A DNA stretch of 64,000 nt from positions 2,960-66,959 of IMG/VR virus record IMGVR_UViG_3300050821_006606; one strand, written 5' to 3'. Positions 3,490 through 29,530 of this stretch are shown here, piece by piece. The notes below the pieces were generated by a model. The model had not been told where the DNA came from, did not search any database, and was given only the letters and a program-made list of their open reading frames with translations. Source of the DNA: a virus. The position numbers and the translations under genes are program-made. How positions within the stretch are numbered: the stretch's first letter is position 1; every line of letters begins with the position of its first letter.

Positions 3490-4236
3490 CTAGGTATTCC
3501 GCCCGGAGCCGCGGTCCGAATAGATGTTGTAAACCTGATTTCCTCTTGAGATCAGTTCTGGATCGAAGACTGCTACTTGGGAACGCATGTTATTTCTCTT
3601 TATTGCCCCCTTTGTATTCATGGCCTCAGCAATAATCAACGGATCTATTTGGGCGCTGGTGAAGTATGGTTTCGCAATCACCGCGAGATTTGTGACAATC
3701 GCCCGCTTGTAACCCGGCGGCAGGGAAAACGGCGAATTCAACGAAGCAAAATCGCCGAGTTGTAGATAGGACATGAACGAGCACGTGTAGCCGATATTCG
3801 GCGTCGGCCAGATGTTGATGAACCCCAGAGGATATTGCGGGTCATACCAGAGATGATCGGGCAGATCGCTGTTGGCGACGGCAGTGGTCTGAATGTTCCA
3901 CGTTTGGTTGTCGACGACATCCATGCCGTAGCGGTTGAGATTGGTGTCCAGCAAATAGGCCGCGCCGGGCGCGTCGCTCACCCGAAGTGGGCGCTGACCG
4001 ACAATATCGGGATTCAACGCGGCCGGCCCTATCGAGTATCGAAACTTCCCTGGGACGAGCGTGAAAGTCTGCGTGATCCAATCGTAGCAGGCCAGACTTT
4101 CGTTCGACCACACGTCCATGAGATCATTGAGCGTCGACAGCATCCGCTCTGCATCGGCATCCGAGAGCGGGCTCCCTGGGTCATAGACGCCAAGTAGTTG
4201 CAGGCTGTCGGTGATAACATCGAGGGCTGTCGTCAT
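3490..4236 (-). CDS. P22 gp4-like head completion / head-tail adaptor protein
   Basis: MTTALDVITDSLQLLGV..LSTLNDLMDVW..LPPGYKRAIVTNLA; position between coat and gp10-like genes. Confidence 0.8.
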   Translation of the reverse strand: MTTALDVITDSLQLLGVYDPGSPLSDADAERMLSTLNDLMDVWSNESLACYDWITQTFTLVPGKFRYSIGPAALNPDIVGQRPLRVSDAPGAAYLLDTNLNRYGMDVVDNQTWNIQTTAVANSDLPDHLWYDPQYPLGFINIWPTPNIGYTCSFMSYLQLGDFASLNSPFSLPPGYKRAIVTNLAVIAKPYFTSAQIDPLIIAEAMNTKGAIKRNNMRSQVAVFDPELISRGNQVYNIYSDRGSGRNT

Positions 4237-4263
4237 CGGGTGATTCCCAGCGAAGATGGAAGC

Positions 4264-4286
4264 ACCCGCGGAGGCCCGTCGCGGTT
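4264..4286 (-). promoter_or_regulatory. Head-gene leader hairpin motif (gp4 copy)
   Basis: AACCGCG ACGGGCCTC CGCGGGT, 28 nt before ATG; near-identical architecture before scaffold and portal. Confidence 0.7.
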
Positions 4287-4310
4287 CGGATAGCTGACCT
4301 TACCGAAAGA

Positions 4311-5075
4311 TCACTCGATTTGGCCAGCCTCCTCCAGCATAGCGGCGACATCATTGCTGGCGATCGCTTCTTTCAGAGCCTTTTTGCGCGCCCACATGGC
4401 CCTCATGCGCTCGCTCACGGCTTGCCTCTGCGCGGCAGTCATCTTGAGATTGGGCTTCTTGGGTTTCTGCTGCTTGCCGGGATAGAGCGGCTTGGTGGGA
4501 ATCGATTTGTCCGCCTCCAAAGCTGCGATCTTCGCTTTGAGCATCTCGATTTCGAGTTGCTCCGGCGTCTTCTCTTCGCGCTCGGCGGCCACTTCAGTCA
4601 CGATGCGGACGCCTTCGACGATATCCTCCTTCGATGGAGCCGGAAGATCGTCCATCCGCACGCCGGCGGCGATGAGTGCCTCACGTTCTTCCTGTTCGTT
4701 GTTGACCAGCTTTCCGCCGGCCCACTTCGGATACTGGATCGGCACGTAATTGGTGATCATGGGAGATGCATCGGCGACCGCGCGAGCGAATGCTCCAGCG
4801 TCAGATTTGCCGATTGTCTGGTAGCCCTGAGATTTGTGGTATTCCTCCTGCTGCGCGTCGTGAACGAGCACGTCAGGGAAGCGAATTGACTTTCCGCCGG
4901 TGTAGATCAGGCGCCCGGTCGGCTTGCCGGTCTGCGGATCGATCACCTTGATTTCTTGATCCGGCACGCCTGGCTGAAAGCCCGGATGCTTCATGTGCTT
5001 CGGATACTCGTTGAACGTCTTCACGGGCGGAGGCTCCCGATACATTCCCTTGCCGGGCTCAAGCAGGATAGCCAT
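4311..5075 (-). CDS. Hypothetical late protein (two YPK motifs, basic C-terminus)
   Basis: Long ORF in operon; EYPKHM and QYPKW motifs. Confidence 0.65.
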   Translation of the reverse strand: MAILLEPGKGMYREPPPVKTFNEYPKHMKHPGFQPGVPDQEIKVIDPQTGKPTGRLIYTGGKSIRFPDVLVHDAQQEEYHKSQGYQTIGKSDAGAFARAVADASPMITNYVPIQYPKWAGGKLVNNEQEEREALIAAGVRMDDLPAPSKEDIVEGVRIVTEVAAEREEKTPEQLEIEMLKAKIAALEADKSIPTKPLYPGKQQKPKKPNLKMTAAQRQAVSERMRAMWARKKALKEAIASNDVAAMLEEAGQIE

Positions 5076-6046: not shown

Positions 6047-6843
6047 TCCGCTGCCTCCGCTTGCTGTTCCGTCAACCGGACGCATTCCCCTGTGTTCCAA
6101 CAAGTTGACCGACATTCCTTAGAATAAAATCGGCATTTACCCTCTGGCGGCGCTGCTGCGGCCTTCTGGACCGGGATCGCGCTATCCCAGAGCCGGCCCT
6201 TCCATTGCTTGCGGCCAGAATGTGTGAACTCGATGCTCGGATCGACCCAGATTTCGCCACCCATCTCGCGCCAGCGGTTGCACCAATCGAAGTCTTCACC
6301 CCACCAATAGTCTGTCCCGTAGGCGCCCATGCGGAAGATTTCAGCAATCCGGATGAAGCTCCCGTCGGGAAGCGCCTGCCGATAGGTCGGGCACGCCGCC
6401 GCCATCTTCTCCATGACGTGGCGCCTGATCCGTAGGAAACCCGTCGGAACGCGCAGAGCCTTGAACAGCCCACTCTTGGTTTGGATCAGATGCCCCTGGC
6501 TTTCATCCATGACGACAGGAAATTCCAAGGTCTCCTGCTTCTTCGGATAGGCGCCGGCCACGACATCTTCCGGATCCAGCAACATGCGCAACGGCGCCTC
6601 CGGGTCAGTCCAACCGACATCATCATCGAGGAAGAAAAGATCGGTTGCTTCCGGGAATTCGCTCAGAAACTTGTGCACCAGGCGATTGCGCGCGCTCGCC
6701 AGATAGCAGTCGCCATTGATGTTGATCAGATTATGGGTGACGCCAGCCGCCGTGAGCAAATTGCTGCTCGCGAAGAAGCTATAAAGAAATTCGACGGAAA
6801 CGCTGTGCGAGACGCAGGGGATCGCGAAAACGGGCTGCATCAT
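6043..6843 (-). CDS. GT-A fold glycosyltransferase-like protein
   Basis: VFAIP..ARNRLVHKFL..TDLFFLDDDVGW (DxD)..TGFLRIRR..GEDFDWC..GGEIWVDP..HSG. Confidence 0.75.
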   Translation of the reverse strand: MMQPVFAIPCVSHSVSVEFLYSFFASSNLLTAAGVTHNLININGDCYLASARNRLVHKFLSEFPEATDLFFLDDDVGWTDPEAPLRMLLDPEDVVAGAYPKKQETLEFPVVMDESQGHLIQTKSGLFKALRVPTGFLRIRRHVMEKMAAACPTYRQALPDGSFIRIAEIFRMGAYGTDYWWGEDFDWCNRWREMGGEIWVDPSIEFTHSGRKQWKGRLWDSAIPVQKAAAAPPEGKCRFYSKECRSTCWNTGECVRLTEQQAEAAE

Positions 6844-8962: not shown

Positions 8963-10147
8963 TCAGTTCGTCAACCTGACGCCCAAGGAATTATAGAACA
9001 TGGCCGTTCCAAATAATATGTCGATACGGCAAGGCGTAACGTCGTTCCACACGTCGTAAGCCCTGACGATGCGCATACTGATGTTGCGGAACATCTCCCG
9101 GGCCGCGAAGTCGACGCCGCCTGGCAGTTCCATGGGCACGACCACGAGGCCGAAGGCGTCGCGGCAGAAGCCTATGTTCTGGAAGTAAGTGGTGTTCGCC
9201 GAACCGACGACAGTGATCGCCGCGCCGTTGGCGGGTGAGGCCGTCACGTTCTGATAGGCACCAGTGGTCGTGATCGCCGGGAAGATTTGCAGGGTGGCGT
9301 TGCCGCCAACATCCGAAGCCGCCACCGCCGTAAGGGTGAATTGCTTCAGGGTGCCGGTCGAGAGGTAGTTTTGAGGGTTGACCTCATAAACGCCGGCCAT
9401 GGTGAAGACATCACCGACGTTCAGCAGGCCCGACCGCGAAGCCGTCCAGCCGTTGGTGATGATCGAAGACCCGGTTTGGTTCGCGCCATTGACGAGCGGC
9501 GTGCCGCTGTAATTGCCGACGGTCTGTGCCTGGATATTCTGATCCAGGTAGATTTCGAAGTTGGCGATCGCCGCCAGGAAGCCTTTCAGCGCTGGCTCAG
9601 CGACGGAACGGGTGAACAGGTTCGACACGCCATTCGCCAATGACCAGTAAGCCGCCGGGTTGAGGATCAGCACGCGGCCGTCCTGTGGTGCGGCGTTTTC
9701 GTCGAGGCGCTGCCCAACAGCGGCGATCGACGCGAAACTGGCCGGCGGAGTGCCGGGCGTTCCGACCTCGTTCGAAAGCTGGCTGTAGAGGGCCAGCACA
9801 TTGGTATCGATGGTGTTCGCCAGCGTTTCGGCCGCCGGCTTGCAGTACCGCTCGGAATACTCCTCGATCGTGAGGGTAAGTTCCTGCGAGGAAAACTGGA
9901 AATCGACGTGTGCCTGCGTCGAGATCGAGATCGACGTGGATGGCTCCGTGATGTCCTGGATTTGCAGCGCCGGACCGAGAGTGACCGTGAAGCGGTTCGG
10001 TTTGCGCACCGTAAGTGTAGTGCCAATCTTCACGAACTGATTCTCGAATTGGCGGTTGACTTTACCTGCCGCCACGAGATTATTGACCAATATTACAAGT
10101 GTTTCCTTAGTAATAAGGCTCGGAGTCAGAAGTGCATTGGCGGCCAT
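8963..10147 (-). CDS. Major capsid protein, P22 coat family
   Basis: MAANALLTPSLITKETLVILVNNL..KIGTTLTVRKPNRF..GDVFTMAGV..CRIDILFG. Confidence 0.92.
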   Translation of the reverse strand: MAANALLTPSLITKETLVILVNNLVAAGKVNRQFENQFVKIGTTLTVRKPNRFTVTLGPALQIQDITEPSTSISISTQAHVDFQFSSQELTLTIEEYSERYCKPAAETLANTIDTNVLALYSQLSNEVGTPGTPPASFASIAAVGQRLDENAAPQDGRVLILNPAAYWSLANGVSNLFTRSVAEPALKGFLAAIANFEIYLDQNIQAQTVGNYSGTPLVNGANQTGSSIITNGWTASRSGLLNVGDVFTMAGVYEVNPQNYLSTGTLKQFTLTAVAASDVGGNATLQIFPAITTTGAYQNVTASPANGAAITVVGSANTTYFQNIGFCRDAFGLVVVPMELPGGVDFAAREMFRNISMRIVRAYDVWNDVTPCRIDILFGTAMFYNSLGVRLTN

Positions 10148-10297
10148 TTACTTACCCTTTACTAAGGTGAAGGCGATTGACGTTGAGGCGGTGGCGTGGT
10201 AACTGTTGTTCCGACGGGATAGGTCGGCCAACCGAACGTCCAGCCTCCGCACTGGGCTTCCCGTCATTACCTTGCGGTACAGATGCGGAGATGAGTC

Positions 10298-11233
10298 ATG
10301 GACATTGAGGAAGAGTCTTCGACCGATTTTGGGCGCGTATTGCCGGCGCCGATGTCCGTTGCGGAATTGCGCAAAATCCTGCGTTACAACCCGAAAACCG
10401 GTGGAATGACATGGATAGTCTCGCCGGGACGCCGAGTTCGAGCAGGAGAGATCGCTGGAACAATCAATTCCGCTGGTTATTTGGTCGTCAAAATCAAAGG
10501 ACGATTTTACAAGGGTCATCGCCTTGCATGGTTTCTTGCCACTGAAGAATGGCCTGACCGGGCCCTTGAGATTGACCACATCAACGAGATCAAGGGCGAC
10601 AATCGACTCTGTAATCTTCGGCTGGTCACTCGATCCGAAAATCAGAAGAACATCGCCAGCAAGCGGACATGGAAGCCTAAGCCCAAGAGTGACGGGCCGA
10701 TCCGGCGAGGACGTGGATTCCAAAGGCCGGCGCCGATGACGCAAGATGCTCTGAAAGCGATCCTTACTTACGATCGTGACACTGGGTTGCTTACTTGGTT
10801 GGCGTGTACGCCCTGTGGCCAAGGCGCTGTCCATCTCAAGGCGGGCACGACCGCTGGGTGCCGTAGCGTCTGGGGTTACATCGTTGTGCGCCTGAACAAA
10901 GTGCTCTATCCGGCACATCGCCTGATTTGGCTTTGGATGACCGGCACGTGGCCGCCCGATATGATCGACCATGTGAATGGGATCAAAGACGACAACCGCT
11001 GGGAGAACCTGCGCCTCGCGACCAGCAGTCAGAACAATATCAATCGACGCTCGACTTTGCCGAACACCAGCGGCTACCGAGGTGTAACGCGGCATCGCGA
11101 CAAATGGATTGCTCAAATCCACATCGAAGGCAGGAATACCGCGCTCGGCACTTTCGACACTGCTGAGGATGCCCGTGCGGCGTACGTCGAGGCGGCTCGC
11201 CTGCATCATGGCGAATTCGCGAGAACCGTCTGA
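10298..11233 (+). CDS. Homing endonuclease with two HNH domains and a C-terminal AP2 domain
   Basis: Two YxxHRL.W..IDHxNxxKxDNRxxNLR units; NTSGYRGV..WIAQI..LGTFDTAEDA..HHGEFA; GGAG RBS. Confidence 0.9.
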   Translation: MDIEEESSTDFGRVLPAPMSVAELRKILRYNPKTGGMTWIVSPGRRVRAGEIAGTINSAGYLVVKIKGRFYKGHRLAWFLATEEWPDRALEIDHINEIKGDNRLCNLRLVTRSENQKNIASKRTWKPKPKSDGPIRRGRGFQRPAPMTQDALKAILTYDRDTGLLTWLACTPCGQGAVHLKAGTTAGCRSVWGYIVVRLNKVLYPAHRLIWLWMTGTWPPDMIDHVNGIKDDNRWENLRLATSSQNNINRRSTLPNTSGYRGVTRHRDKWIAQIHIEGRNTALGTFDTAEDARAAYVEAARLHHGEFARTV

Positions 11234-11324
11234 CCTGAGGGCGTGATTGCCCAACGCCGTGAACTCCTCTGGCCACGGCGGATGCCGCGGTCCTACGTGG
11301 TTGTGATCATGTTCGGTGGTCCTT

Positions 11325-11421
11325 TCCCGAGGCGTGCTCGGTGGTCCCGGACGTGCCGGTGGCAGGCGGTAGTGTCCCGGGTGTCCCGGTGGGTAGGCAC
11401 GTTACCCGGCGCGTGGCCGGT
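11325..11421 (-). repeat. Array of four CCACCG...CGGG(A/T) hairpins
   Basis: Copies at 11404-11421, 11375-11390, 11345-11360, 11325-11342. Confidence 0.75.
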
Positions 11422-11427
11422 GGGTCG

Positions 11428-12651
11428 TCAGTGAATTTGGCTTGGCGGGAAGAACGGCGCGCGCTCCTGGCGCAACGCCTTCATCCGTCGTTCGGCGTAA
11501 GTAGCCATGTCAGGCTCGGCATCGGTCGTGTCGGCGCGGTTTTCGGTCGTGTCGATCGGCTCGATTGGCGCCGGCCGCGCTCGTCTCGGAGGATTGGCGA
11601 TCCGTTCGGATATCCGGCCAAGCTCGATGAATTGTTCCGCGACGTTGGGCATTGAGGCGATGCGAACCGATTCCTCGGGATCCTGCGCCAATTGGTAGGC
11701 GATGTCCGGACCATTCTCGATCAGCAGGATCGCTGCCGCCATCGCATCGGTGATCGTAGGGCCGCCGTCGGCCGGCGCCTTCTTGGTCACCTCATCGAAG
11801 TCCGGGTATTTCTCGGTGGCCTTCTCGACCCTGGCGGTCCAGGTGTCATAGGTCTGCTTGACCGCTGCTTCATGCGCGACTCGCGCCTCTTCGTCAGCTT
11901 TGGCTTTGGCCTCAGCCTCTTCTGCTGCTTTCTTCTCGGCATCGACCCGGGCGGCTTCCGCTGCCACGGCTTCTTGCTCGCGGTGGGCTTCCCGTTTGCC
12001 CCAGGCGACCATCGCCTCATCGTAGAGGTCTGGATTATCGAACTCGTCCCTGGTCGGGCGAGGATCGGGCTTTGGCTCTTCCTTGGGAGCGGCGGCCTTC
12101 AGATCATCGAGGGTCTTCTGAGCCGCTTCGAGAGCTTCCCTGGCTTCCTTCGCCTCTTTGGCGGCGATGGCCGCTTTGCGGTTGGCCTCATTGACGGCCG
12201 TATCACGGGCGACATCGACGGCCTTCTGCCATGCCTCATCACCAACCTGTGCCCGAGCGGCTTTCCAGGCGGCGTCGGCGGCGTCCTGCGCTTTCTTGCG
12301 CTCCTTCTGGATCGAACGCACCGCATAGGATGGCAGATCATCCGGGATGGCGTCGAATTCGAGTTTGGGAGGCGTCTCCGGCTGATCATCCGGCTTGGCC
12401 TCGGTCTCAGGCTTGGCTGTCCCATCAGACTTGGGATCAGCGTCAGGCCCTGCCCCCTTCCTGGCGGCGGTCGCCGCTGCCAATTCTTCGGCCGTGATCT
12501 CCTTGGGCTTGCCTGCCGCTATGTCAGCCGGATCATTCGAGGCGGATTCGGGTGGCGTTGCGACCGGTGCCAGGGGCTGGTCGGTCGTCGCCGACAGCGG
12601 GATCGCTGTGCGTTCGATGATGTCTGGAGCACGAGAAGCTGCAAGCGCCAT
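11428..12651 (-). CDS. Capsid scaffolding protein
   Basis: Acidic coiled-coil; P.RDEFD..YDEAM..W; EKYPDFDEV; GPDIAYQLAQDPEE..RIA; APIEPI; upstream of coat. Confidence 0.85.
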   Translation of the reverse strand: MALAASRAPDIIERTAIPLSATTDQPLAPVATPPESASNDPADIAAGKPKEITAEELAAATAARKGAGPDADPKSDGTAKPETEAKPDDQPETPPKLEFDAIPDDLPSYAVRSIQKERKKAQDAADAAWKAARAQVGDEAWQKAVDVARDTAVNEANRKAAIAAKEAKEAREALEAAQKTLDDLKAAAPKEEPKPDPRPTRDEFDNPDLYDEAMVAWGKREAHREQEAVAAEAARVDAEKKAAEEAEAKAKADEEARVAHEAAVKQTYDTWTARVEKATEKYPDFDEVTKKAPADGGPTITDAMAAAILLIENGPDIAYQLAQDPEESVRIASMPNVAEQFIELGRISERIANPPRRARPAPIEPIDTTENRADTTDAEPDMATYAERRMKALRQERAPFFPPSQIH

Positions 12652-12686
12652 GGGCGAGAGAAATCCCGATCAGATTGGATTCTGTC

Positions 12687-12709
12687 ACCCGTGGAGGCGC
12701 TTCACGGTC
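12687..12709 (-). promoter_or_regulatory. Head-gene leader hairpin motif (scaffold copy)
   Basis: GACCGTG AAGCGCCTC CACGGGT, 36 nt before ATG. Confidence 0.7.
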
Positions 12710-12723
12710 AGCTTTCAAAGCGT

Positions 12724-12785
12724 GGTCTAACTCAATGGATTCTATGTCGTCAAGTCTTGCGATTGAGAGCGGCTGTGATATAGCT
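12724..12785. promoter_or_regulatory. Divergent promoters (scaffold leftward, tRNA cassette rightward)
   Basis: Minus TTGACG-18-TAGACC; plus TTGCGA..TGATATAGC. Confidence 0.4.
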
Positions 12786-12795
12786 CGCTCGCTGG

Positions 12796-12872
12796 TGCGG
12801 GATAGAGCAGTCCGGTAGCTCGCTTGGCTCATAACCAAGAGGTCGTCGGTTCAAATCCGGCTCTCGCTACCA
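12796..12872 (+). tRNA. tRNA-Met(CAT), initiator-like
   Basis: Cloverleaf: TGCGGGA/TCTCGCT with 1:72 mismatch, GAGC..GCTC D arm, CTTGG-CTCATAA-CCAAG, GGTTCAAATCC, encoded CCA. Confidence 0.92.
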
Positions 12873-12874
12873 GC

Positions 12875-13063
12875 GATCGCGATGGCGTTGATGGGTCGGC
12901 TATACGCCCTTGGTTAGCCGCACGGGATCAAGGGGAAGGCCGGCCCTAGCCGGGTGGAGCAAGGGGCCTGAAGTACTGTTACCGATAACAGCAGGACATG
13001 CATCGGGTTCTGCATTCGGCCCTAAGCAGCAGTGGGACCGGGAGTCTAAACCGGGTCGCGATT
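12875..13063 (+). ncRNA. Unknown structured ncRNA between two tRNAs
   Basis: 9-bp terminal stem, at least 5 internal stems and an 8-bp pseudoknot; fills the inter-tRNA spacer. Confidence 0.65.
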
Positions 13064-13065
13064 AT

Positions 13066-13141
13066 GCCGACGTAGCTCAATAGGTAGAGCGACTGCTTTG
13101 TAAGCTGTGGGTTAGGGGTTCAATTCCTCTCGTCGGCTCCA
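13066..13141 (+). tRNA. tRNA-Thr(TGT)
   Basis: GCCGACG/CGTCGGC acceptor, GCTC/GAGC D arm, anticodon loop TTTGTAA, GGTTCAATTCC, CCA. Confidence 0.92.
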
Positions 13142-13145
13142 CTTT

Positions 13146-16100
13146 CTACTGCTGGAACACCAGATAGGTCTGATTCTGGATCGTCTCCACGGTCATGAGC
13201 GCGGTCAGTTGCGCCGCCGAGTAGCCGAACACGAGGACACCGGGCCCATCGTTCGCGCTGGCAGTGATGAAGGCGAAGGAAGCTCCGGCGAAGTTCACAT
13301 CCCGGATAACCCAACCAGACCCTTGTGGCACGTCCACGGTCAGTTTGAATGTGCCGGGATCCGGAGTGATCGCATTGAAACTGATCAGTGTCAGGGCGTT
13401 CATGAGCACTTCGATCGACAGCGGCGCGTGGATACCATCACCCTTGCCGATAGTGGTGCCACCGGCCTGAGCTACCGCGAAATCCCGGAACATGGTAGGA
13501 TTGGCGTCGAAGATGGCCTGCGCCCCGGACAAAGGCACGTTCAGCCCGCCACTCAGTTGATTGATGGTGATGGTGCCCTTGCCGGTGAGTTCGATAATCG
13601 TCTTGCCGGTGTATTCGAACCCCTGGCCGCTGTCCTGCGAGGCATCCCAATATGTGAAAGAGGTCTTGGACCCGTCCGAGTTCGGTGCGAGCATCGGCTT
13701 AAATACGATGGTTGACCCCTGAAAACAGCCATAAACGAGACTGTTATTCTCCTGGGGAGTGCCGCTGGACGCGCTTGGCTCCAATTTCAGCCGCACAGCA
13801 CCGGTCGCCTGGCGCATATCGAAGGTGCCTGACTGGTAGTTATTGAAGTCGTAAGAGCCGCCCGCGGTGATGATCTCATTGAGAGTGGTCACTGTATCTG
13901 CTCCTAAGCTGTTGGTTTGAACCGTATGATCCGGCGTCATCGTCAGGTTGGAGTCCACATCCTCCGCGACAATGGCGAAGTGCTCCAATGTATTCACCGG
14001 AAGATGGGCCATGACGGCGCTGTGCGCCGTGCCGAACAGATTTTCTATGTCAGAGTACCGGAAGTACGCCGTGCTCGATCCGAACCTCACATATCCCAGC
14101 GAAGGTTTGTCGGTCGTCCAGTTGACCCGCGCATCGGTGCCGTCGATCAGGGATAATGTCACATTGCTGATCACCGGCGGCGTCGTGTCCGTGGGCGGTG
14201 GCGGAAGATGAGGCAGCAATTGGGTCGGGAAATAGACCGATTCCTCCTGCACCCGCTCCGTCGCCAGTTGCAGATCACGCCCGGTCACCTCTGGACGCGC
14301 GACGGAGCCGCCTAACCCGTTCCGAACGAAGTTGCTTATCTGGTTGAGCGGCAGAGTCACCATCGCGTCGAACTGCACAACCCCTGGAATGGTCGAATAG
14401 CCACTACCGCGAAGCGCGGCCTGAGCGGACCGGGCGCTGAACGGAAATTCAGGGATGGTGCCCCAGTTATCCCAATAGGCGCCAAGCCTGTTTTGGATCG
14501 GCCAAACGTCCGTGTTCAGGTAATTGCCGGACCACGGTATGTCGGATGGCACCCCAAACCTGTAGAATTTAGGCGCGCTATCTCCAAATCCGTGCACCAG
14601 CAATCGAGCTTCATTCTTGTCGATCGCGAGCGCCCATGGGTAATGACCAGGGTCAATTCCATAATTGCTCGATGGTTCACTTCGGGTGCCGTCCGCGGAG
14701 ATGCGGGTCATGGTGCGATTGTCGCCACCCGTATCGCAATTCACGAAAACATCGTCGATCGGCCCGATGTTGCCATTGCGATCGACATCGATCCAAGTCC
14801 AGCCCGCGCCACACAGGCCGCTGGCGATCAGCGTCACAGCGTTCGTGGTCAGGTCCATGTGCTTGATATTGCCGGCGGTCAACTCGTCAATGATCAGATT
14901 GGTGTGCGAGTCGAAGCGGACCGCGAACGGCTGGCTCAATCCTTGTGCCGCGCCGGCGATGGTGCTTACCGTGCTGCCATCCGGAGAAATCATGCGGATG
15001 CTGTTGTTGTCGTAATCCGCTACATACATCGTGCCATCCGAGCGCACCACGATGCTGTTTGGACCGCCGAATTGCGCCGTCAGGGCTGGACCATCGACAT
15101 TGCCTTGGATGCCGGGAACCCCTGCGTATGTCGTGATGTTCGGTGGGCTGACCGAGAAATCGACCTTGGCGATACGCGCGTTCGATTGGTCGGCCACGTA
15201 CAGGATACTGCTGTTCCTCGGATCGAAGGCAAGGTCCGTGGGCTCGTTAAAACCGACACCATTGAAATTCCCGATCGTGGTGAACTGAAGGGCATCCCGG
15301 TCCGACTGTGTGACGTTGGAATCCCAGATGGAGTAAGGCACAACGGATTTAATTGTCTGGCGACCCGCGATCGTGACCACCGAACCGTCCATGTTGAGTT
15401 GGAAGATGCGACCAGCTAGATCGATACCTACAAAGCCTCGCGCGGTGGGATTCGGGACATAGGTGCTGTAGGGCGACACGATGTTGTCATCACGCGATCC
15501 GTCGATCGCGGGCCGCATCAGAACACCGGGCAGGGCGATGTCGGAATCCGCTCCGGCCTCTGGGTCCATGGTCTCAAACAGAAGGCGACCGGCCTTCGTG
15601 CGAGCGATCTGAAGCCCGGTCTGCTCAAGGGTCACATTGGATTGGGTAAGGGATTCTTCCGTGAAGTACGGGCCAAGGCCCTGGTCCGACAGATTTCGCG
15701 AACTGGCCGGTGCGCTCACAGGTGAGGTATAAGATGTCGTGGTCGCGGGATGCGGCCATGTATAACCGGTGGTCCAGAACCGCCACTCCGGGATATCCGT
15801 TCGGCCCCAGTTGCGTATAACACCAGAGCCGACACTCGGCAGCAGTTGCGGGCCTGTGTTGGGTGTCGGATTGTTCCCGACAAGGAATGTGACCGCCGTC
15901 GGCACGTCTTTCGTAGTGTCGCCACTGCCGTCGACCAGGATCACCGAAGCGACGTGCGCGCCATCCGGTACGGTGGTGGAGTCCCAGGTGAACGCGTAGG
16001 GCGAGGTCAATCTTCCGCTCACCGGCTTGCCGTCGATCGTGTAGATCAGCGTGACACTGGGATCGATATTGCTGAGAAGATCGTCTTCGTAACTGAAATG

Positions 16101-18036: not shown

Positions 18037-18913
18037 TATTGGACCGTCGCGGTTGCCGAGACTGCCTTACCGTCTTTGTCCCGATTCAGGGATACCATCC
18101 TCGGCGCGCGGATTGCCTGATCAAGCGTTTCGGTCCATTGCTTCATGTTGGTCATCAAACTTTCATGGCCGCCAGCGAGCGTCTTCATTTGCTCGGCTTG
18201 GCTCTGAGTCTGCCGGTCCAACGTCGCGGCGACCTCAGTCAGCGCGCCCTTGTGCTCTCCCTGAGACCCGCGCATGTCATCGACGAGCGAGGTTACCGCA
18301 TCAGCCATCGCCCGTATGACATCGGTGTTCTCTTGGAGAGAAGCGCGAAACTCTTCGACTTTCTCCGTGTTGGCCTTCAGCGCTTCACTCAGGCTCCATA
18401 GGCCAGCGATCATGTTCGGCGGGATCGTCAGCATCAGCGCCGGGCCGTGATCAGTGTCCTCTTTGAGAGCGGCCTTGGTCTCTTTCTCGGCGCGGGCAGG
18501 CGAAACCGGCTCTTCGTCGACAATCTCGTGATGAACCGGCGACCATCCGTCGTTCATGTGTACTCCGTCACCTTCGTTGGCGGCGCCACTCGATTATATC
18601 GCATATATTGGGCACTCGGCAGAAATGCGAACCCACGTTGATCATTGAGTTCTTCAGGAGTGATCCCATGGATCATGATCGCTTCATCCTGCGGGTAAAA
18701 ACCTCTGGCGATATAATACTGTTCAAGCTCAATGTTTTGCATCGCCGCCAAAGAAAGATAGGCCCTCACTGGCGGTGGGTCTTTCGCGACTGTCACGGAG
18801 ACCCCTCTGTTTTCGAGATGCTTCGCGACATCCTCACGGACCATCACGATGCCGAGGTGCGTCCCGGTTGTATCGACCAGTTTGAACCATGCGCCTGATA
18901 GCCGTCCGCTCAT
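18036..18913 (-). other. Two hypothetical ORFs following portal (18036-18557 coiled-coil; 18554-18913)
   Basis: Translationally coupled; C-terminal RDKDGKAV motif in first. Confidence 0.6.
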
Positions 18914-21348
18914 GCCGCCCTCTGTGGCTTGCCATCCTGCCCGAGCGTCCACCGCTGGCCATTGGCGAAGCGGGTTATGCGGCCGGGCTTGAGATGCTGC
19001 AAGGCTTCTGGGGGCAGCGCTCCGGCCTCCTGGGGCTGACTTGGCGCTTGAGGCGCCGAACTTGGACCTTCGGCCGGCATACTTGGAGCATTCGGCGCTG
19101 TCCCGGCAGCTTGGCTCGCGCCGCCAGTGTCGTTCGCCGGTTCCTGTCCTTGGTTTTCCAGCACGTGCACGAGACCGGTCGTCTCCTCGCCCAATTCGTT
19201 TATCTGGGAGGCGATATGCGTATTGAAATTCGCGTTAGCCTTCTGGTTGATCGCGGCCATTTTGGTCTCGGTATCCGAGATGACCTTCAGCAAAGCCGCT
19301 TCGAACCGCTTTTCGATATCATCGTGTTTGATCGCGCGATCGGCGTTCTTGTCCTGCAACGCGGCCATGGCCTGCCGTAGCTGCTCGGAAAGCTGCTTGA
19401 TCGCGTTCTCCTGCCCCTGAAGGATCGCCTGCACCTGGGGCGTGACATCCTTCATATCCGGCGACATGAGTTGCGGTGGGATGGTCTTCGCGAGCCGAGC
19501 AGCGATTTGCTCCGCACCTGGCCAATCTTGCGCCTGCGCGAACAGATCGACCACCAGAGCGGCGGTCTGCGGCAGCGCTTTCATGAAGGCCATCATATTT
19601 TCAGATGCTTCGATCCGCTTCGTCGCGTAGGATGGCCCGATCGTCACCGTGACGCCGTAGCGCCCGTAGGTCGGGTTGTAGAGTTTGCGGACCTTCCCAT
19701 CCGGCCGGCGCTCCTCCCCAGAGGCCCGGTTCATGTTCGGATCGATCTTGACCTGTTCCTCTTTCTCGTCCTCGCGCAAGATCGTGAGCACCCGCGGCTC
19801 ATCGTAAACTTTGGGGATCAGTTCGACCATGATCTCCCCAGCGCGCTTCAGCGAGCGAGCGAGGTTGTCGATGTAGTGGAATGCTCCGATATCGCCCGAG
19901 CGGCGAAGTTCCCGGATCGCCTTCCCGGACTCGTCGATCATCCGCTCGTTCATCGTGGCGTCGAACCGGATCCCGGTCGTCGCCATCATGTCCTGCGCTG
20001 CCCCAGCGATCGCCGCCTCAATACCCGCCGGAATGCCCGCCATGGGCTGACGCTGCGGCGGAGGCGCCGGATGACCGGCTACCGAGGTGCCCTTGTAGGA
20101 CAGATATGGGATGTTCTTGACGTTCGCGTTTTTGAACTCGTCCTCGTGGCCCTCGATCTGGCCCTCTTCCACCACCCAAGGCGACTTCGGCTGAAGCGCG
20201 ATCAGTTCTGTCTCGGCCGTCTTCCAGTAGTTAAACATCCGCTGTGGGTCTTTCGCGTTGCGGATGATACCGGACAGCTTAGATTTACCCTCAACGTCGG
20301 TTTCCTCACCAATAACTTTAACTACTGGTATAGTAGAACCCAGCCATTCACGCTCCATGAGGACATCGGTCGCGGTCACCTTGTACCACATGACCTTGGG
20401 CACCCGGCTCTCGCGCTCATCGACTACTTTCACTCGATTGCGCTTAATCTTGGCCTTCACAATATCGTCGAGTTCGTCCTTCCACCCGACATGCCCATTG
20501 TCGAGCTTCACAAGTATTTTGGTGTCGTACTCGATCTCGAAATACTCAGCGATCCGGATTTCGTCTTTAGATGCCCAGGTTGACATCTTCTCGCCAATAC
20601 CGGCGTCCGTGTAGGGCATCTCCGGGACATCCGGATATTTCTCTTTGAACTCGTCCCGCGTGATCATCTCCGTGACGAACGCATATTTGGCGTCCGCACC
20701 GGTCGGATCTTGGTGCGCAGGATCGAGGTAGACCGTGAAGGCATTCCGGATGCGCCGCACAACCAGCACGAGATTGAAGCTGTCCGGAGCTTCCCATTCA
20801 GTGAGGATGCGAAAAAATCCCCAACCCATTGTCACGGCATCGTCAAAAGCCGTGTCATAAGCGATGTCCGCCGAGCAATCCCGCTCGATGAACCGGATCA
20901 TGCCGCGGTAGAGTTTGGCGACATCACTATCGCCTCGATCGCCCACCGGAGAAATGTTGATCGCCGGCCGGTTCTGGCGCTGATCGTTCACGATCTGATG
21001 TATGAACGTCGGCAGCTTATTGATTGTTAAACATGGCCTTTTGTCGATATTTCGTTGCGCCATTATCGCGGTCGGCCACTGTTCGCCAACCCGGAATAGC
21101 TTGTCGTCCAGACCGGACTTCCGCATCTCGCTCTCGGAAGAAATGCATTTTTCCATTCTTTTTCGAATTCGATCGAGCAACTTCGCCTTTTTGGCTTCGG
21201 CTCCCTCAGGAGCTTTGTTGCTCAGTCTGACAATGCCCTTGTCGTCGAAATTGGACAGATCGCGAGGCGCGACCTTAACCATGGCGCTATCAGTTGGCGG
21301 CATACGCACGCGCCCGGAATCCGGCGCGCGAAGGGGACTATCGGCCAT
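18910..21348 (-). CDS. Portal protein, P22-like
   Basis: GEQWP..RPCLTINKLP..NDQRQNRP..GIIRNAKDPQRMFNYW..SGKAI..GPSYATKR. Confidence 0.92.
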   Translation of the reverse strand: MADSPLRAPDSGRVRMPPTDSAMVKVAPRDLSNFDDKGIVRLSNKAPEGAEAKKAKLLDRIRKRMEKCISSESEMRKSGLDDKLFRVGEQWPTAIMAQRNIDKRPCLTINKLPTFIHQIVNDQRQNRPAINISPVGDRGDSDVAKLYRGMIRFIERDCSADIAYDTAFDDAVTMGWGFFRILTEWEAPDSFNLVLVVRRIRNAFTVYLDPAHQDPTGADAKYAFVTEMITRDEFKEKYPDVPEMPYTDAGIGEKMSTWASKDEIRIAEYFEIEYDTKILVKLDNGHVGWKDELDDIVKAKIKRNRVKVVDERESRVPKVMWYKVTATDVLMEREWLGSTIPVVKVIGEETDVEGKSKLSGIIRNAKDPQRMFNYWKTAETELIALQPKSPWVVEEGQIEGHEDEFKNANVKNIPYLSYKGTSVAGHPAPPPQRQPMAGIPAGIEAAIAGAAQDMMATTGIRFDATMNERMIDESGKAIRELRRSGDIGAFHYIDNLARSLKRAGEIMVELIPKVYDEPRVLTILREDEKEEQVKIDPNMNRASGEERRPDGKVRKLYNPTYGRYGVTVTIGPSYATKRIEASENMMAFMKALPQTAALVVDLFAQAQDWPGAEQIAARLAKTIPPQLMSPDMKDVTPQVQAILQGQENAIKQLSEQLRQAMAALQDKNADRAIKHDDIEKRFEAALLKVISDTETKMAAINQKANANFNTHIASQINELGEETTGLVHVLENQGQEPANDTGGASQAAGTAPNAPSMPAEGPSSAPQAPSQPQEAGALPPEALQHLKPGRITRFANGQRWTLGQDGKPQRAA

Positions 21349-21353
21349 TTGTT

Positions 21354-21400
21354 ACCCGCTCTTGGCGGTGGAGGGGAACCCGGTGAGCCGCGAACCGGTA
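21354..21400 (-). promoter_or_regulatory. Two head-gene leader hairpins (portal)
   Basis: TACCGGT TCGCGGCTC ACCGGGT (21378-21400) and CCACCGC CAAGA GCGGGT (21354-21371). Confidence 0.7.
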
Positions 21401-26558: not shown

Positions 26559-27230
26559 TTAGGCGGCAACACAGCGAAGACGATACCTTTCCCGCAAGGC
26601 CGCTCGACTTTGTTCGAGGTTCGCATAATAGTGCGCTGCGGCACGAAGGCGGTTACATTCCTTACATTCACCTCCCTGTCTATTTCTCGTGCTGGTCGAG
26701 CGGCGCATGATGTTGTCTTCGATATAGGGATGGCCGCATTTGAATTGCGTTTTCGGCGGCTTCGGAGGCCGCGCCAGCCTTGCTTGGCGTTGTTTTTCCA
26801 GATTCCTTGTCTGATAGATACCGTCGCATATACGACAAAGGCGACGGCCGCGGCCTTCGCGTCCAGGTTTGCGAATAGTATTCTCTTCTGAATATGGGTG
26901 CCCGGCTTTGCAATGGGTTTTCGCGAGTTGGCGCTGCGCTGCCGTCTTGCCAGTATTCCCTCGCCGGATGTTAATCTTGCGAGTCACGGCCTCCAGATGA
27001 GCCGGATTTACGCAGCATCGGACCCTACAAAGATGGTCCAGTTCAAGACCCTCCGGAATTGGCCCTGTAAATAGACGATAAGCCACTCGATGAGCCAATT
27101 CTTGCTTGCCAGCGTCATCTGCGATGAATCCGTAGCCGGTCTGCCATGACCATGCGCCGGCCCACAACCAGCATCCGGAATTTGGCTCCGGGATGTACTT
27201 CGCCTCAAATCGTTCCAGCAGAGTGGCCAT
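26559..27230 (-). CDS. HNH homing endonuclease with C-terminal CxxGH zinc-ribbon repeats
   Basis: SGCWLWAG..GYG..AHRVAY..GPIPEGLELDHLCRVRCCVNPAHLEAVT..N; THCKAGHPY, FKCGHPY. Confidence 0.88.
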   Translation of the reverse strand: MATLLERFEAKYIPEPNSGCWLWAGAWSWQTGYGFIADDAGKQELAHRVAYRLFTGPIPEGLELDHLCRVRCCVNPAHLEAVTRKINIRRGNTGKTAAQRQLAKTHCKAGHPYSEENTIRKPGREGRGRRLCRICDGIYQTRNLEKQRQARLARPPKPPKTQFKCGHPYIEDNIMRRSTSTRNRQGGECKECNRLRAAAHYYANLEQSRAALRERYRLRCVAA

Positions 27231-27413: not shown

Positions 27414-29048
27414 TCAGTTCATGGGATGCGTGCTGGTCGTCACCCTGCCGTCGTAAAGCTGGTGACTGAGGTCGTTAAGCAATCCGGCGATCATCATGAC
27501 CGGCAATCCAGCGGTATCGATGGTCTGGACATCCTCGCAGTACCGCCCGTCCTCGCTCACCGTGAAGGTAATCGTCAGGGCGTAACTCTTGCCGGCGATG
27601 ACGGTGCCTTCGTTCACCGCTGTCTCGGCGGCGTCATCTGAGCGGATAGCCGCGGCGTGCCGCCCTTCGTGAAGTTCCGGTTGAACGCTTCGTCCGGCTT
27701 CACCGGTTCCGGCATCTTCATGGCGCCCTTGCGCTTCGGCTTGTGAGCGGCCTTCTTCTTGCCCGGGTGCATCTCGATCGAGGGTGTCAGCACGGCGTTT
27801 TTCATGGGTCGATTCCCTATCAGTCGAGGCGACCTTACCCCTCGTTCTTGCTGAGACGCCAGATGGCCTCGACGGCGATCATGATTTCGCGCTGTTCGTC
27901 CTCAAGCAACGCACCACGGCAGGAGATTTCCTGTTTCCCGAGCCATTCCCGATCGTAGGCGGCGAAGCTGATATCGCTCAGCCGCTTGCCACATGGCTTC
28001 TCGCCGTTGTTTTTATTCGTGCACCGGCCATCCGGCCCGAAGTTGTGGAGCGCGATGCTCATCCACCAATGCGCCTCGGATCGCCAAAGCCGATTTTAAC
28101 CGGGAATGGCGCCTTTTCCTTGGGAACACTATCCAGAGCCTTTCGCATTTGCTCGCGCGCTCCGGACATCACCTTGCCGTCGATCACGTCGCCGATCGCC
28201 CGGTGAAAGTTCTCGTGCACTGGGTCTGGCACGGCCTGTTTGACCGGTCCCGCAGTGGTCTCCACCGTCTCAGTCGGCCCGATGTAATCGCGTTTGCCTT
28301 GGTCGTTGACGCGCATCAGTGCGTCAGACAGGCTTGCGATCGTCTCTGCGTCATGGCCGCGCAGGATCTCCATTGCCGCTGCCTCGCCTTCCAGGCCCTC
28401 GATCCGATCGCGCTGGGTCAAGTTCTCCATGCGCAGCCGGCGGATTTCATTTCCGGCTTCAATCGCGTCAGCCCGAGCCGCATTGCGTTCATCATATAAC
28501 CGCCGTGCGGTTTCATGCAGTGAGTCGACGCGAAGTTGGAGGCGTTGGAACGTGTCTGTAGCTTCGGCCAGCACTGGCGCAAGTCCATCCGGCGCGAGCG
28601 CCGCCATCGCGCGGTAGATCATTGTAACATCTGATGCCTTGAAATCATCTTCGCCAGCCTGGAAAGCCGCCATTCCAGCCTCAACCATCTGCGCCGTCAC
28701 AGGCTGGCACTCCGGGTCGGCCAGCATGGCCTCCGCTTCGCGCTGGCGGACTGTCTGAGGATCAACAACAATCGTCCAGTCGGCAGAAGCTTCGACCTTC
28801 TTGATCGTCGTGCCGCCCGCCTCGTTGTGCCGGAGAAGCTCGCCATTCGGATAACAAATCTTTGTGATCACGCCCTGTTCATTGGTTTCAAGGCGGCCCA
28901 TGCCATGTTTGGCTGCCTCAGCGGCGATGCCCTTGCTGTCCGCTGGCCAAATGGCGAGCATTGCATTGAGCGCTCTAACGGAGGTGGCGTCTTCCTTAGC
29001 AGAATCTATCCGTTTCATTGCTTCCTGAATTATCTGATCCGCTGTCAT
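27414..29048 (-). other. Hypothetical ORFs (27414-27617, 27614-27805 basic, 27835-28062, 28059-29048 coiled-coil)
   Basis: Coupled same-strand ORFs. Confidence 0.55.
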
Positions 29049-29530
29049 TTCGATTTCCTCCGTGTTGTGATCTTCGCGGTGCCGGCGTTGACAGCGGCCA
29101 TCTTCGGCTCGCCGTATTTCTGGACGGACGCGCGCTTTACCACGTATTCACCCCTCTGGGCAGCGATCAGACCGTCGTCCCTGCCGATTGGCTTTCCGGT
29201 CACTTTGCGCACGGCGCCGCCTTTCTTGAAGCCAGTCGGATCTGGGTCTTTCTTCCGGTCGGCCGCCTCTTTCTTCATCATGCGGTCGATGTCCGCCAGC
29301 CGATTGCGTCGCTCGCCTGGGTCCGCTGGTGGAAAGCCCTGCCTGAACGGATCGACCTCGCCGCCGTCGGCGTAACCCTTCGACCGTTTTTTCGACGGAT
29401 GATCGCGAACCACGGCATTCGCTGCCATCGCGGCCCGTTTTGGCGAAGCGCCACGGTCAAGCATACTTTGCTCGACGTGATCCCACTGGCGTTTTTGCGC
29501 GGGTGTCTTGGCCTTGGCGCTGCGCGGCAT
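29045..29530 (-). CDS. Basic protein, ChaB-like N-terminus plus GG..GEYVV module
   Basis: RQWDHV..RAAMAANAVV; YADGGEV, FKKGGAV..DDGLIAAQRGEYVVK. Confidence 0.45.
   Translation of the reverse strand: MPRSAKAKTPAQKRQWDHVEQSMLDRGASPKRAAMAANAVVRDHPSKKRSKGYADGGEVDPFRQGFPPADPGERRNRLADIDRMMKKEAADRKKDPDPTGFKKGGAVRKVTGKPIGRDDGLIAAQRGEYVVKRASVQKYGEPKMAAVNAGTAKITTRRKSK

Follow-up and report, generated by a model that had tools for sequence, protein, structure and literature searches.

What role does a row of four short hairpins play when it lies between the scaffold and coat genes of a phage? Apart from a few model phages, it is largely unexplained how genes of one long phage late operon come to be expressed at different levels, and such a row is present in the IMG/VR virus record IMGVR_UViG_3300050821_006606. 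The stretch of DNA analyzed here, hereafter the window, comprises 64,000 nucleotides (nt; positions 2,960 to 66,959 of the record), that is, nearly all of the 66,959-bp viral contig. On the minus strand, which carries the head genes, the gene for the head scaffolding protein (11428-12651; phrog_8865, E 1.1e-18) is followed within 98 nt (11326-11423) by four hairpin units of the form CCA-CCG(N1-2)-loop-(N1-2)CGG-G(A/U). The gene for the major capsid protein, a P22-type coat protein, lies further downstream on the same strand (8963-10147; phrog_283, E 1.6e-77; PF11651, E 2.6e-40). These hairpins are conserved in related phages and probably help to set the amount of coat protein. As read from the aligned genomes, the array opens a conserved module in which the hairpins are followed by a Shine-Dalgarno (SD) sequence, a very short open reading frame (mini-ORF), a stronger hairpin and the SD of the coat gene.

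The array starts 4 nt 3′ of the scaffold stop codon (TGA, 11428-11430), and all four units are read on the minus strand. Unit 1 (11404-11423; CCACCGGC-CACGC-GCCGGGT, folded as CCA-CCGGC-CACGC-GCCGG-GT) has a calculated energy of -9.4 kcal/mol and scores 22.1 bits with the covariance model R1, of whose seed units 1, 2 and 4 are members. Unit 2 (11375-11392; CCACCGGG-ACA-CCCGGGA, folded as CCA-CCGGG-ACA-CCCGG-GA; -8.5 kcal/mol, 24.3 bits) is directly preceded by the linker motif GCCUACC (11392-11398). Unit 3 (11345-11362; CCA-CCGG-CACGU-CCGG-GA), with 4 pairs only, is the weakest of the units (-5.4 kcal/mol) and did not reach the threshold of E≤10 when the whole window was searched with R1. Unit 4 (11325-11344; CCACCGAG-CACGC-CTCGGGA, folded as CCA-CCGAG-CACGC-CUCGG-GA; -6.8 kcal/mol, 19.2 bits) belongs to an 'ACCGAG...CUCGGG' type that is the last unit of the array and keeps this position among the relatives. 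The unit structure is backed by families of direct repeats. A first-pass annotation of this DNA had described the stems, loops and flanks of the four hairpins and had placed the array a few nt after the scaffold stop; on the minus-strand reading both descriptions are correct.

A count over both strands of the 64 kb gives 11 matches to CCACCG-N5-15-CGGG, compared with 3.85 expected (standard deviation 2.07; maximum of 10 in 100 shuffles), and four of the 11 fall within the one 98-nt stretch, all of them on the minus strand. A stemmed pattern of the ACCG-N-CGGGTG type has nine matches in the window versus 6.25 in Markov simulations, and in five relatives the bare ACCG-N-CGGGTG pattern is not enriched genome-wide over a reversed-pattern control. 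Clustering, stems and position carry the signal, and the count does not. The energies of the single units are not significant against shuffled sequences (z of -1.19, -1.09, +0.34 and -1.63 for units 1-4). The array region is rich in C and poor in U (44% C, 28% G and 6% U; linkers 46% C, 15% G and 10% U) compared with the strand average of 29% C, 30% G and 20% U. Judged from this single genome alone the array is a weak finding; its support is comparative.

A search with the coat protein gave 121 related viral loci, 80 of them retained, together with 12 loci in bacterial and archaeal assemblies; individual loci are denoted below by L and a number. Two or more units were found in 15 of 68 distinct regions upstream of coat, 13 of these having the strict ACCG...CGGG form and the remaining two (L011 and L012) carrying four units each of the variant ACCCG...CGGGG. 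All 11 relatives with a coat identity of at least 74% have at least one unit in the same place, and 10 of the 11 have three or four. The position and number of the units are kept in phages whose scaffold proteins are only 27-47% identical. In five of five near-complete relatives, four of which are outside the seed, the best genome-wide match of the covariance model is in the scaffold-coat spacer. The first-pass annotation had proposed that the highest number of copies stands ahead of the most abundant protein, and in relatives lacking the insert described below the array is indeed directly before coat and is the largest such cluster of each genome. In more distant relatives a spacer of 40-90 nt holds a single generic hairpin at this site, and in L048, L049, L053, L054 and L091 (the last located on a Paraburkholderia silviterrae scaffold) the spacer carries a stem with a T-run nested in a larger stem. 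These generic and T-run hairpins would fit an ancestral structural role of the site. Isolate genomes with relatives are those of P. silviterrae and of a Rhodanobacteraceae strain, where they are prophages; no close cultured relative was found, the best coat match in a phage database being 40% identical.

The covariation that the first-pass annotation had ascribed to the stems is weak within one genome and becomes convincing once relatives are compared. When 24 units from nine phages were aligned, three pairs (C-G, C-G and G-C) were invariant and 97.5% of the cells were paired, while the two upper pairs varied between GC (14), AU (8) and CG (2), and between CG (11), GC (10) and unpaired (3), respectively; none of 500 shuffles reached the covariation score. 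A test with anchors is less biased than this alignment, because the aligned units had been picked by their anchors and at least one extra pair. Among anchors of the form ACCG-N5-20-CGGG in 61 distinct scaffold-coat spacers, 45 of 63 have at least two further stacked pairs, compared with 41 of 316 sense and 32 of 230 antisense anchors in the coat gene and downstream of it. In L088 even the otherwise invariant base shows a compensatory change (ACUGAG...CUCAGG). Conservation and covariation in relatives had been named beforehand as the observations on which the array would stand or fall, and both are seen, as the same position and as compensatory changes in the stems.

To describe the spacers independently of sequence, hairpins of at least five pairs were picked by a greedy algorithm in 19 array-bearing spacers. 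This census returned 77 hairpins, comprising 32 of the ACCG...CGGG form, eight of the variant ACCCG..CGGGG form and 37 others, which are mostly the coat-proximal hairpin described below or alternative greedy picks. The loops are 3-10 nt long and share no sequence: CACGC, ACA, CACGU and CACGC in the window, and UUCG, CAUGA, GCGCA, CGGACA, GCGAAUAA and others in the relatives. The spacing of the units is irregular (18-59 nt), and two units of L008 lack the 3′ flanking G. The GCCUACC(C) linker is found directly 5′ of units in the window and in L007, L008, L010, L011, L012, L018, L021 and L056. A coding role is ruled out by the number of units, which ranges from 2 to 5. It lies in an untranslated spacer between ORFs of the same strand, with a conserved promoter 5′ of scaffold and none recognized inside the spacer. 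L008 and L011 have an additional small ORF between scaffold and array, which ties the array to the coat leader, behind whichever ORF precedes it. The extra ORF occupies 3813-4139 in L008 and about 4450-4845 in L011, and its C-terminal part (...VKKYGHAKLAAVNAGKAVITVPK...) resembles a window sequence encoded just 5′ of the ATG at 29048 (about 29050-29150, minus strand).

Downstream of the array the first-pass annotation had overlooked an SD with a mini-ORF, a second hairpin and a gene on the opposite strand. The leader of the mini-ORF (11311-11325, minus strand) consists of an SD-like AAAGGA (11320-11325) and a fifth CCACCG (11314-11319), a half-unit without a hairpin that duplicates the 5′ half of unit 4 (direct repeat D3, 92%). 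The mini-ORF itself (11293-11310, minus strand; ATG ATC ACA ACC ACG TAG, encoding M-I-T-T-T) has homologous ORFs of 2-6 codons in relatives. It is followed by the coat-proximal hairpin CCGCGGC-AUCC-GCCGUGG (11273-11290, minus strand), which with 7 pairs and -13.4 kcal/mol (z -2.26) is present once per related spacer, with 72% of the cells paired in fixed columns. Next comes the original coat SD, AGAGGAG (11264-11270, minus strand), with a TTG (11252-11254) 9 nt on; in the window this SD is now cut off from coat by a plus-strand gene for a 311-residue homing endonuclease of the HNH_3 + AP2 type (10298-11233; phrog_99, E 9.8e-105; PF13392, E 2.8e-29). The location given in the first-pass annotation, between scaffold and coat, is thus literally true, but this ORF intervenes before coat is reached. 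In relatives without the HNH gene, AGGAG serves as the coat SD, 5-9 nt ahead of the coat start. The module can be aligned in 14 phages from the last hairpin onward to the start of coat, with AGGAG invariant in all 14. A scan of the 19 array-bearing spacers for an SD followed by an ATG ORF of at most eight codons identified such a mini-ORF in 15 of them; the script flagged 16, including a false pick in L009, where a real 3-codon ORF lacks an SD matching the search expression. L011 and L012 have a GTG candidate only, and L089 has none. The stop codon of the mini-ORF is 28-43 nt, mostly 33-35 nt, 5′ of the next start. An attenuation-type sensor, in which the Thr-rich mini-ORF would act together with a phage tRNA-Thr, was considered and set aside, the ORFs having only 2-6 codons; their Thr and Asn codons are probably a consequence of the A/C-rich composition.

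Hairpins with the same stem base occur in the leaders of other genes, as the first-pass annotation had proposed for a head-gene leader motif. That link is real for the leaders of portal, scaffold and ORF 3490-4236, although the conserved promoter ahead of the scaffold-leader copy, and the other leader copies, had gone unnoticed. The scaffold-leader hairpin, ACCGUG-AAGCGCCUC-CACGGG (12688-12708, minus strand), is preceded by a promoter-like site (12724-12753, minus strand) made up of TTGACG (12748-12753), 17 nt and TTAGAC (12725-12730). A CTTGACG-17/18-TAnnnn site of this kind is found 5′ of scaffold in the window and in eight relatives (L007-L018), and the hairpin begins 11-22 nt after the -10 element; -35, -10 and hairpin are kept in the eight relatives, with compensatory changes in the stem. 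A scan with the sigma-70 consensus did not call the site, because its -10 is non-canonical (TTAGAC-like). Ahead of portal (18910-21348, minus strand; PF16510, E 3.7e-164) there is a hairpin ACCGGU-UCGCGGCUC-ACCGGG (21379-21399, minus strand) and a short one, CCACCGC-CAAGA-GCGGG (21355-21371, minus strand), which ends 6 nt before the portal ATG. The latter is the short-loop copy already pointed out before portal, and it is borne out by a score of 17.1 bits with the array-unit model. With this match (21352-21372) and one of 17.7 bits at 33487-33508, which lies inside the terminase ORF and is probably due to chance, the best non-seed matches in the window are accounted for. The portal promoter is uncertain, the scan reporting a promoter-like TTGACA-16-GATGAT at 21540-21513; a T-run terminator read by eye upstream of the portal leader was dropped, as the scan did not call it (12-nt loop). 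A further leader hairpin, ACCGCG-ACGGGCCUC-CGCGGG (4265-4285, minus strand), lies ahead of ORF 3490-4236. Its loop ACGGGCCUC is kept while the stems differ (ACCG-CG/CG-CGGG in the window, GG/CC in G001 and AG/CU in L011) and is also found in L012. All leader hairpins of the family in the window are on the head-gene strand and in untranslated spacers. In two relatives (L010, 7983-8024; L024, 7978-8014) a pair of ACCG...CGGG hairpins stands immediately before the SD (GGGUGGAG) of a gene that lies some 1.8 kb downstream of coat, where the window has no equivalent pair.

Starting from the presence, position, strand, conservation, covariation and composition of the hairpins, and from the architecture of the module, we propose roles in mRNA stability, translational uncoupling and reinitiation. 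The reading that we tentatively prefer is that of a cis-acting element of the late mRNA, which would protect the untranslated spacer from decay and uncouple coat from scaffold translation. The module would act in the order in which it is laid out: 2-5 short GC hairpins with C/A-rich, U-poor linkers, an SD with a mini-ORF of 3-6 codons, a stronger hairpin, and the SD and start of coat. The hairpins would lock G-rich sequence locally and leave linkers that are nearly free of U, and with the G-rich sequence paired and the linkers U-poor the ribosome-free spacer of about 120 nt would offer few sites of the RNase E type. The hairpins may also block exonucleases from either side, giving segmental stability to the mRNA, and may hold back ribosomes that have finished the upstream ORF, so that coat would be uncoupled from scaffold translation. 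Coat translation would instead depend on ribosomes that enter at the strong SD of the mini-ORF; after terminating right before the second hairpin, these would reinitiate at coat, about 34 nt further on. In the other leaders the single hairpins could serve as 5′-proximal stabilizers, the one of scaffold being best placed for this, 11-22 nt after the conserved -10. Should the module act on mRNA stability or ribosome loading, it would be a natural counterpart of engineered insulators and bicistronic designs.

Several points weigh against such a purely structural element. The hairpins are individually weak (-5.4 to -9.4 kcal/mol, 4-5 pairs) and far below typical exonuclease barriers. Whole-region folding energy was rejected as evidence for the array, the 151-nt stretch folding no better than shuffles (z +0.86 on both strands). 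The strand test, with 7 G-U versus 6 A-C stem extensions, does not separate sense RNA from antisense RNA or DNA, and a search for sequencing runs with a 4.3-kb stretch listed no RNA run and a single DNA run, which may be the source sample. The C-rich, G-poor linkers are also what Rho prefers. Finally, an element that is only structural should not keep A-CCG/CGG-G and the single-stranded GCCUACC fixed in phages whose scaffold proteins have diverged as far as these; the invariance of the two motifs points to a specific trans-acting factor.

Such a factor, a more specific form of the multivalent protein-binding array that the first-pass annotation had inferred, is a possible, if rather doubtful, alternative to the cis-acting element. 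The hairpins would then be the binding or cleavage sites of one sequence-specific trans-acting factor, either a late-gene RNA-binding regulator or an endoribonuclease acting at the hairpin base, which would recognize the stem base and the adjacent single strand; with 1-2 sites in the leaders and 2-5 at coat, control of the head proteins would be graded and coordinated. The stem base is invariant in 40 of the 77 hairpins of the census that was blind to sequence (32 and eight of the variant), GCCUACC stands just 5′ of units in at least nine distinct spacers, and the family is spread as in a regulon over the leaders of portal, scaffold and ORF 3490-4236 and the array. In orthologous leaders the loops (ACGGGCCUC and AAGCGCCUC) are kept while the stems change. 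Weak stems of 5 bp have the size of known peptide-binding hairpins such as boxB. The array loops, however, differ in length and sequence both within and between phages, the spacing of the units is irregular, and distant relatives have only a generic or a terminator-like T-run hairpin at the site, all of which speaks against binding that depends on loop or geometry. The loss of the 3′ flanking G in two units of L008 and the compensatory change of a base pair in L088 also count against the factor, no candidate binding protein was identified, and the likeness of units within one phage may equally be due to tandem duplication. If the stem base is read by a protein, the hairpins would define a new phage post-transcriptional regulon, and on either of the two readings they are a candidate new family of cis-regulatory RNA.

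Known protein-binding hairpins provide a measure for this alternative. The boxB hairpins of lambda and P22 and the operators of MS2 and PP7 are likewise short, with 5-8 bp, and lie in leaders or between cistrons; these sites need conserved loop bases, and those of MS2 and PP7 also a bulged A. Arrays of MS2 and PP7 sites are an engineered model of multivalent binding. The hairpins studied here differ in that the array loops are variable and a bulged A is not kept in the leaders. A nut site of the lambda/P22 type was rejected for want of a conserved loop. An operator of the MS2/PP7 type was likewise rejected: there is no overlap with a start codon, the loops vary, and a C stands 5′ of the A in only 26 of 48 units. 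An MS2-like reading with a bulged A fails on the leader hairpins, and the regular spacing expected of an ordered oligomer is not seen. An improbable variant of protein binding is that the hairpins are operators for a phage-encoded sensor of head assembly (for instance unassembled scaffold or coat protein, or a dedicated small RNA-binding protein) that would bind late mRNAs, at one or two sites in the leaders of portal, scaffold and one further head gene and at 2-5 sites before coat, and would tune the synthesis of head proteins to assembly. In P22 the scaffold is reportedly autoregulated at the post-transcriptional level, and an assembly sensor at the hairpins would provide a sequence-defined handle on autoregulation of this kind.

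The terminator-like hairpins of distant relatives and the composition of the linkers bear on a further alternative, namely a transcriptional control point between scaffold and coat, acting as a Rho-type attenuator or through nascent put- or nut-like hairpins that promote read-through by RNA polymerase; the leader hairpins just after promoters would be given the same role. We consider this unlikely. It is in keeping with the T-run hairpin found in the same spacer of L048, L049, L053, L054 and L091, with the C-rich composition of the array RNA (44% C, 28% G) and of its linkers (46% C, 15% G), with the scaffold-leader hairpin 11-22 nt after a conserved -10, and with the inverted HNH cassette of 0.7-1.1 kb that the transcription unit tolerates in the window and in L008. 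The four stems are also GC-rich, with 4-5 pairs that are almost all G-C. Against this, none of the four hairpins in the window is followed by a T-run, the 3′ flanks being GUAACG, GACACU, GACCAC and GAAAGG, and the array is thus not an intrinsic terminator; 3-4 U follow a unit in L011 and L012. A scan of 10000-13200 for terminators and consensus sigma-70 promoters returned none at the array. The array shows no boxA-like element (the boxA consensus was not searched for), no conserved loop and no Rfam match, and halting transcription before the most abundant virion protein would be counter-intuitive.

The HNH gene, about 70 nt from the array, raises the question whether the hairpins belong to the DNA and not to the mRNA, as hairpin or cruciform sites on single-stranded or supercoiled DNA, as duplicating repeats resembling repetitive extragenic palindromic (REP) sequences or miniature inverted-repeat transposable elements, or as HNH-homing sites. 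Apart from this neighborhood, structure is equally possible on both strands, as the counts of G-U and A-C extensions indicate, and the likeness of units within a phage suggests concerted duplication. We nevertheless regard a selfish or DNA-level feature without an mRNA role as very improbable. The array is present in the HNH-less relatives L007, L009 and L010, and is therefore not part of the HNH cassette. Its units are always oriented like the head genes and linked to stop codons, SD sites and promoters; they are not dispersed over the genome, and they keep position and number at 27-47% scaffold identity. REPs are about 35 nt long, occur in hundreds of dispersed copies and are linked to a REP-associated tyrosine transposase (RAYT) of the IS200/IS605-like type. 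No dispersal of the kind seen in REPs or in bacterial interspersed mosaic elements was found, the model matches being concentrated in one spacer in the window and in five of five relatives, and the units begin with CCA-CCG in place of the GTAG head of REP. Repeats of clustered regularly interspaced short palindromic repeat (CRISPR) arrays are about 21-48 nt long and alternate with unique spacers of similar or greater length; the units here are 15-19 nt with linkers of 2-14 nt, and no CRISPR repeat family scores at the array.

Searched with Rfam 15, the region 10100-12700 gave no match at the array at E≤10, and in the whole window only two tRNAs reached the gathering score. On the sequences compared here, the hairpins are a clade-specific motif family of RNA type among the structured intercistronic and leader elements; the literature search was not motif-specific, and we make no claim that the family is unpublished. 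Precedents for the cis-acting element that we prefer are the multiple intercistronic hairpins protecting puf mRNA, REP sequences and 5′-terminal stem-loops, as treated in part in PMC7509114. The likeness to Rhodobacter puf and Escherichia coli REP, as far as given there, lies in GC-rich hairpins in an untranslated polycistronic spacer between products made in different amounts, for which protection against endo- and exonucleases has been proposed (PMC7509114). The array units are smaller and weaker (4-5 pairs, -5 to -9 kcal/mol), have a stem base that does not vary, occur only in the head-gene region of a single phage clade and are combined with an SD and a mini-ORF. In the 5′-terminal stabilizers of the ompA type (Emory et al. 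1992, as cited in PMC7509114) the hairpin is near the transcript end, as it would be for the scaffold-leader hairpin judged from the promoter -10, whereas the array units are internal.

Among phages, P22 (NC_002371) has a single stem-loop after coat (6102-6119), annotated as being located like stem-loops of HK97 and lambda. It resembles the present case in a hairpin flanking the major capsid gene of a late operon with the same coat and portal families, but in P22 scaffold and coat overlap (4804/4804) without a spacer, while here a multi-copy array lies upstream of coat. The start-associated sequences (SAS) and extended SAS (ESAS) of Cluster K mycobacteriophages, in the part of PMC3203893 that describes them, are likewise clade-specific inverted-repeat motifs with a variable spacer, found in one orientation upstream of a subset of genes; they too are conserved by gene family. 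The sequences and hosts are unrelated, and an ESAS is an imperfect repeat of 17 bp that goes with a 13-bp motif near the start. Unlike in the coat-leader module, neither a multi-copy array nor a mini-ORF is among the features described in that part of PMC3203893. Here an uncultured clade of soil phages with genomes of 67-88 kb shares a compact, sequence-defined RNA module ahead of its most abundant protein.

The HNH cassette is inverted and sits exactly between the coat SD and the coat ATG both in the window and in L008, whose HNH protein is only 36-37% identical to that of the window; it is missing from the site in L007, L009 and L010. A query with the single window protein found no relatives of it in viral contigs. 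On the minus strand, antisense to the HNH gene and codon-aligned with it, a frame of 368 codons (10148-11254) opens at the TTG that follows the orphaned SD, ends with a TAA (10148-10150) abutting the coat ATG, and gave no family match. The same layout is seen in L008 (4300-5003), where a TTG at 4312, 7 nt after the SD, opens a frame that extends to 4995 and has its stop codon 5 nt ahead of the coat ATG. The TTG is 38 nt (window) and 34 nt (L008) after the stop of the mini-ORF, which is the position of the coat start in uninterrupted relatives. With TTA, CTA and TCA making up 1.3% of codons, about four antisense stops are expected in 311 codons, and in none of the 40 other window ORFs of at least 200 residues is an antisense frame open throughout, the highest open fraction being 0.81. 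From these two examples it is plausible that the 368-codon 'bridge ORF' lets ribosomes cross the inverted cassette without leaving the coat transcript and so counteracts polarity. Inverted cassette and bridging frame together may bear on how mobile genes avoid harming their hosts. L046 carries a different HNH gene, with a DHDH...CxxC-type motif and in the sense orientation, between scaffold and coat (about 4130-5000), which makes the junction a recurrent landing site of homing endonucleases. A further HNH gene near head genes is found in L027 (917-1405), and the window has a second HNH ORF at 26559-27230.

Some of the loci in bacterial and archaeal assemblies stand apart by the labels of the metagenome-assembled genomes (MAGs) that contain them. 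L087 is an 88-kb contig in a MAG labelled Verrucomicrobiia, with a spacer identical to that of the viral contig L010, and L097/L098 are 44%-identical coat genes in a MAG labelled Bathyarchaeota; these are probably phage contigs mis-binned into the MAGs. In the window, genes for tRNA-Met(CAU) (12796-12872) and tRNA-Thr(UGU) (13066-13141) are located on the plus strand, opposite to the head genes, with about 190 nt of unassigned DNA between them. The pair lies between the scaffold promoter and the gene for a 1050-residue NHL-repeat protein, and a tRNA-Gly(UCC) is encoded on the minus strand at 28608-28694.

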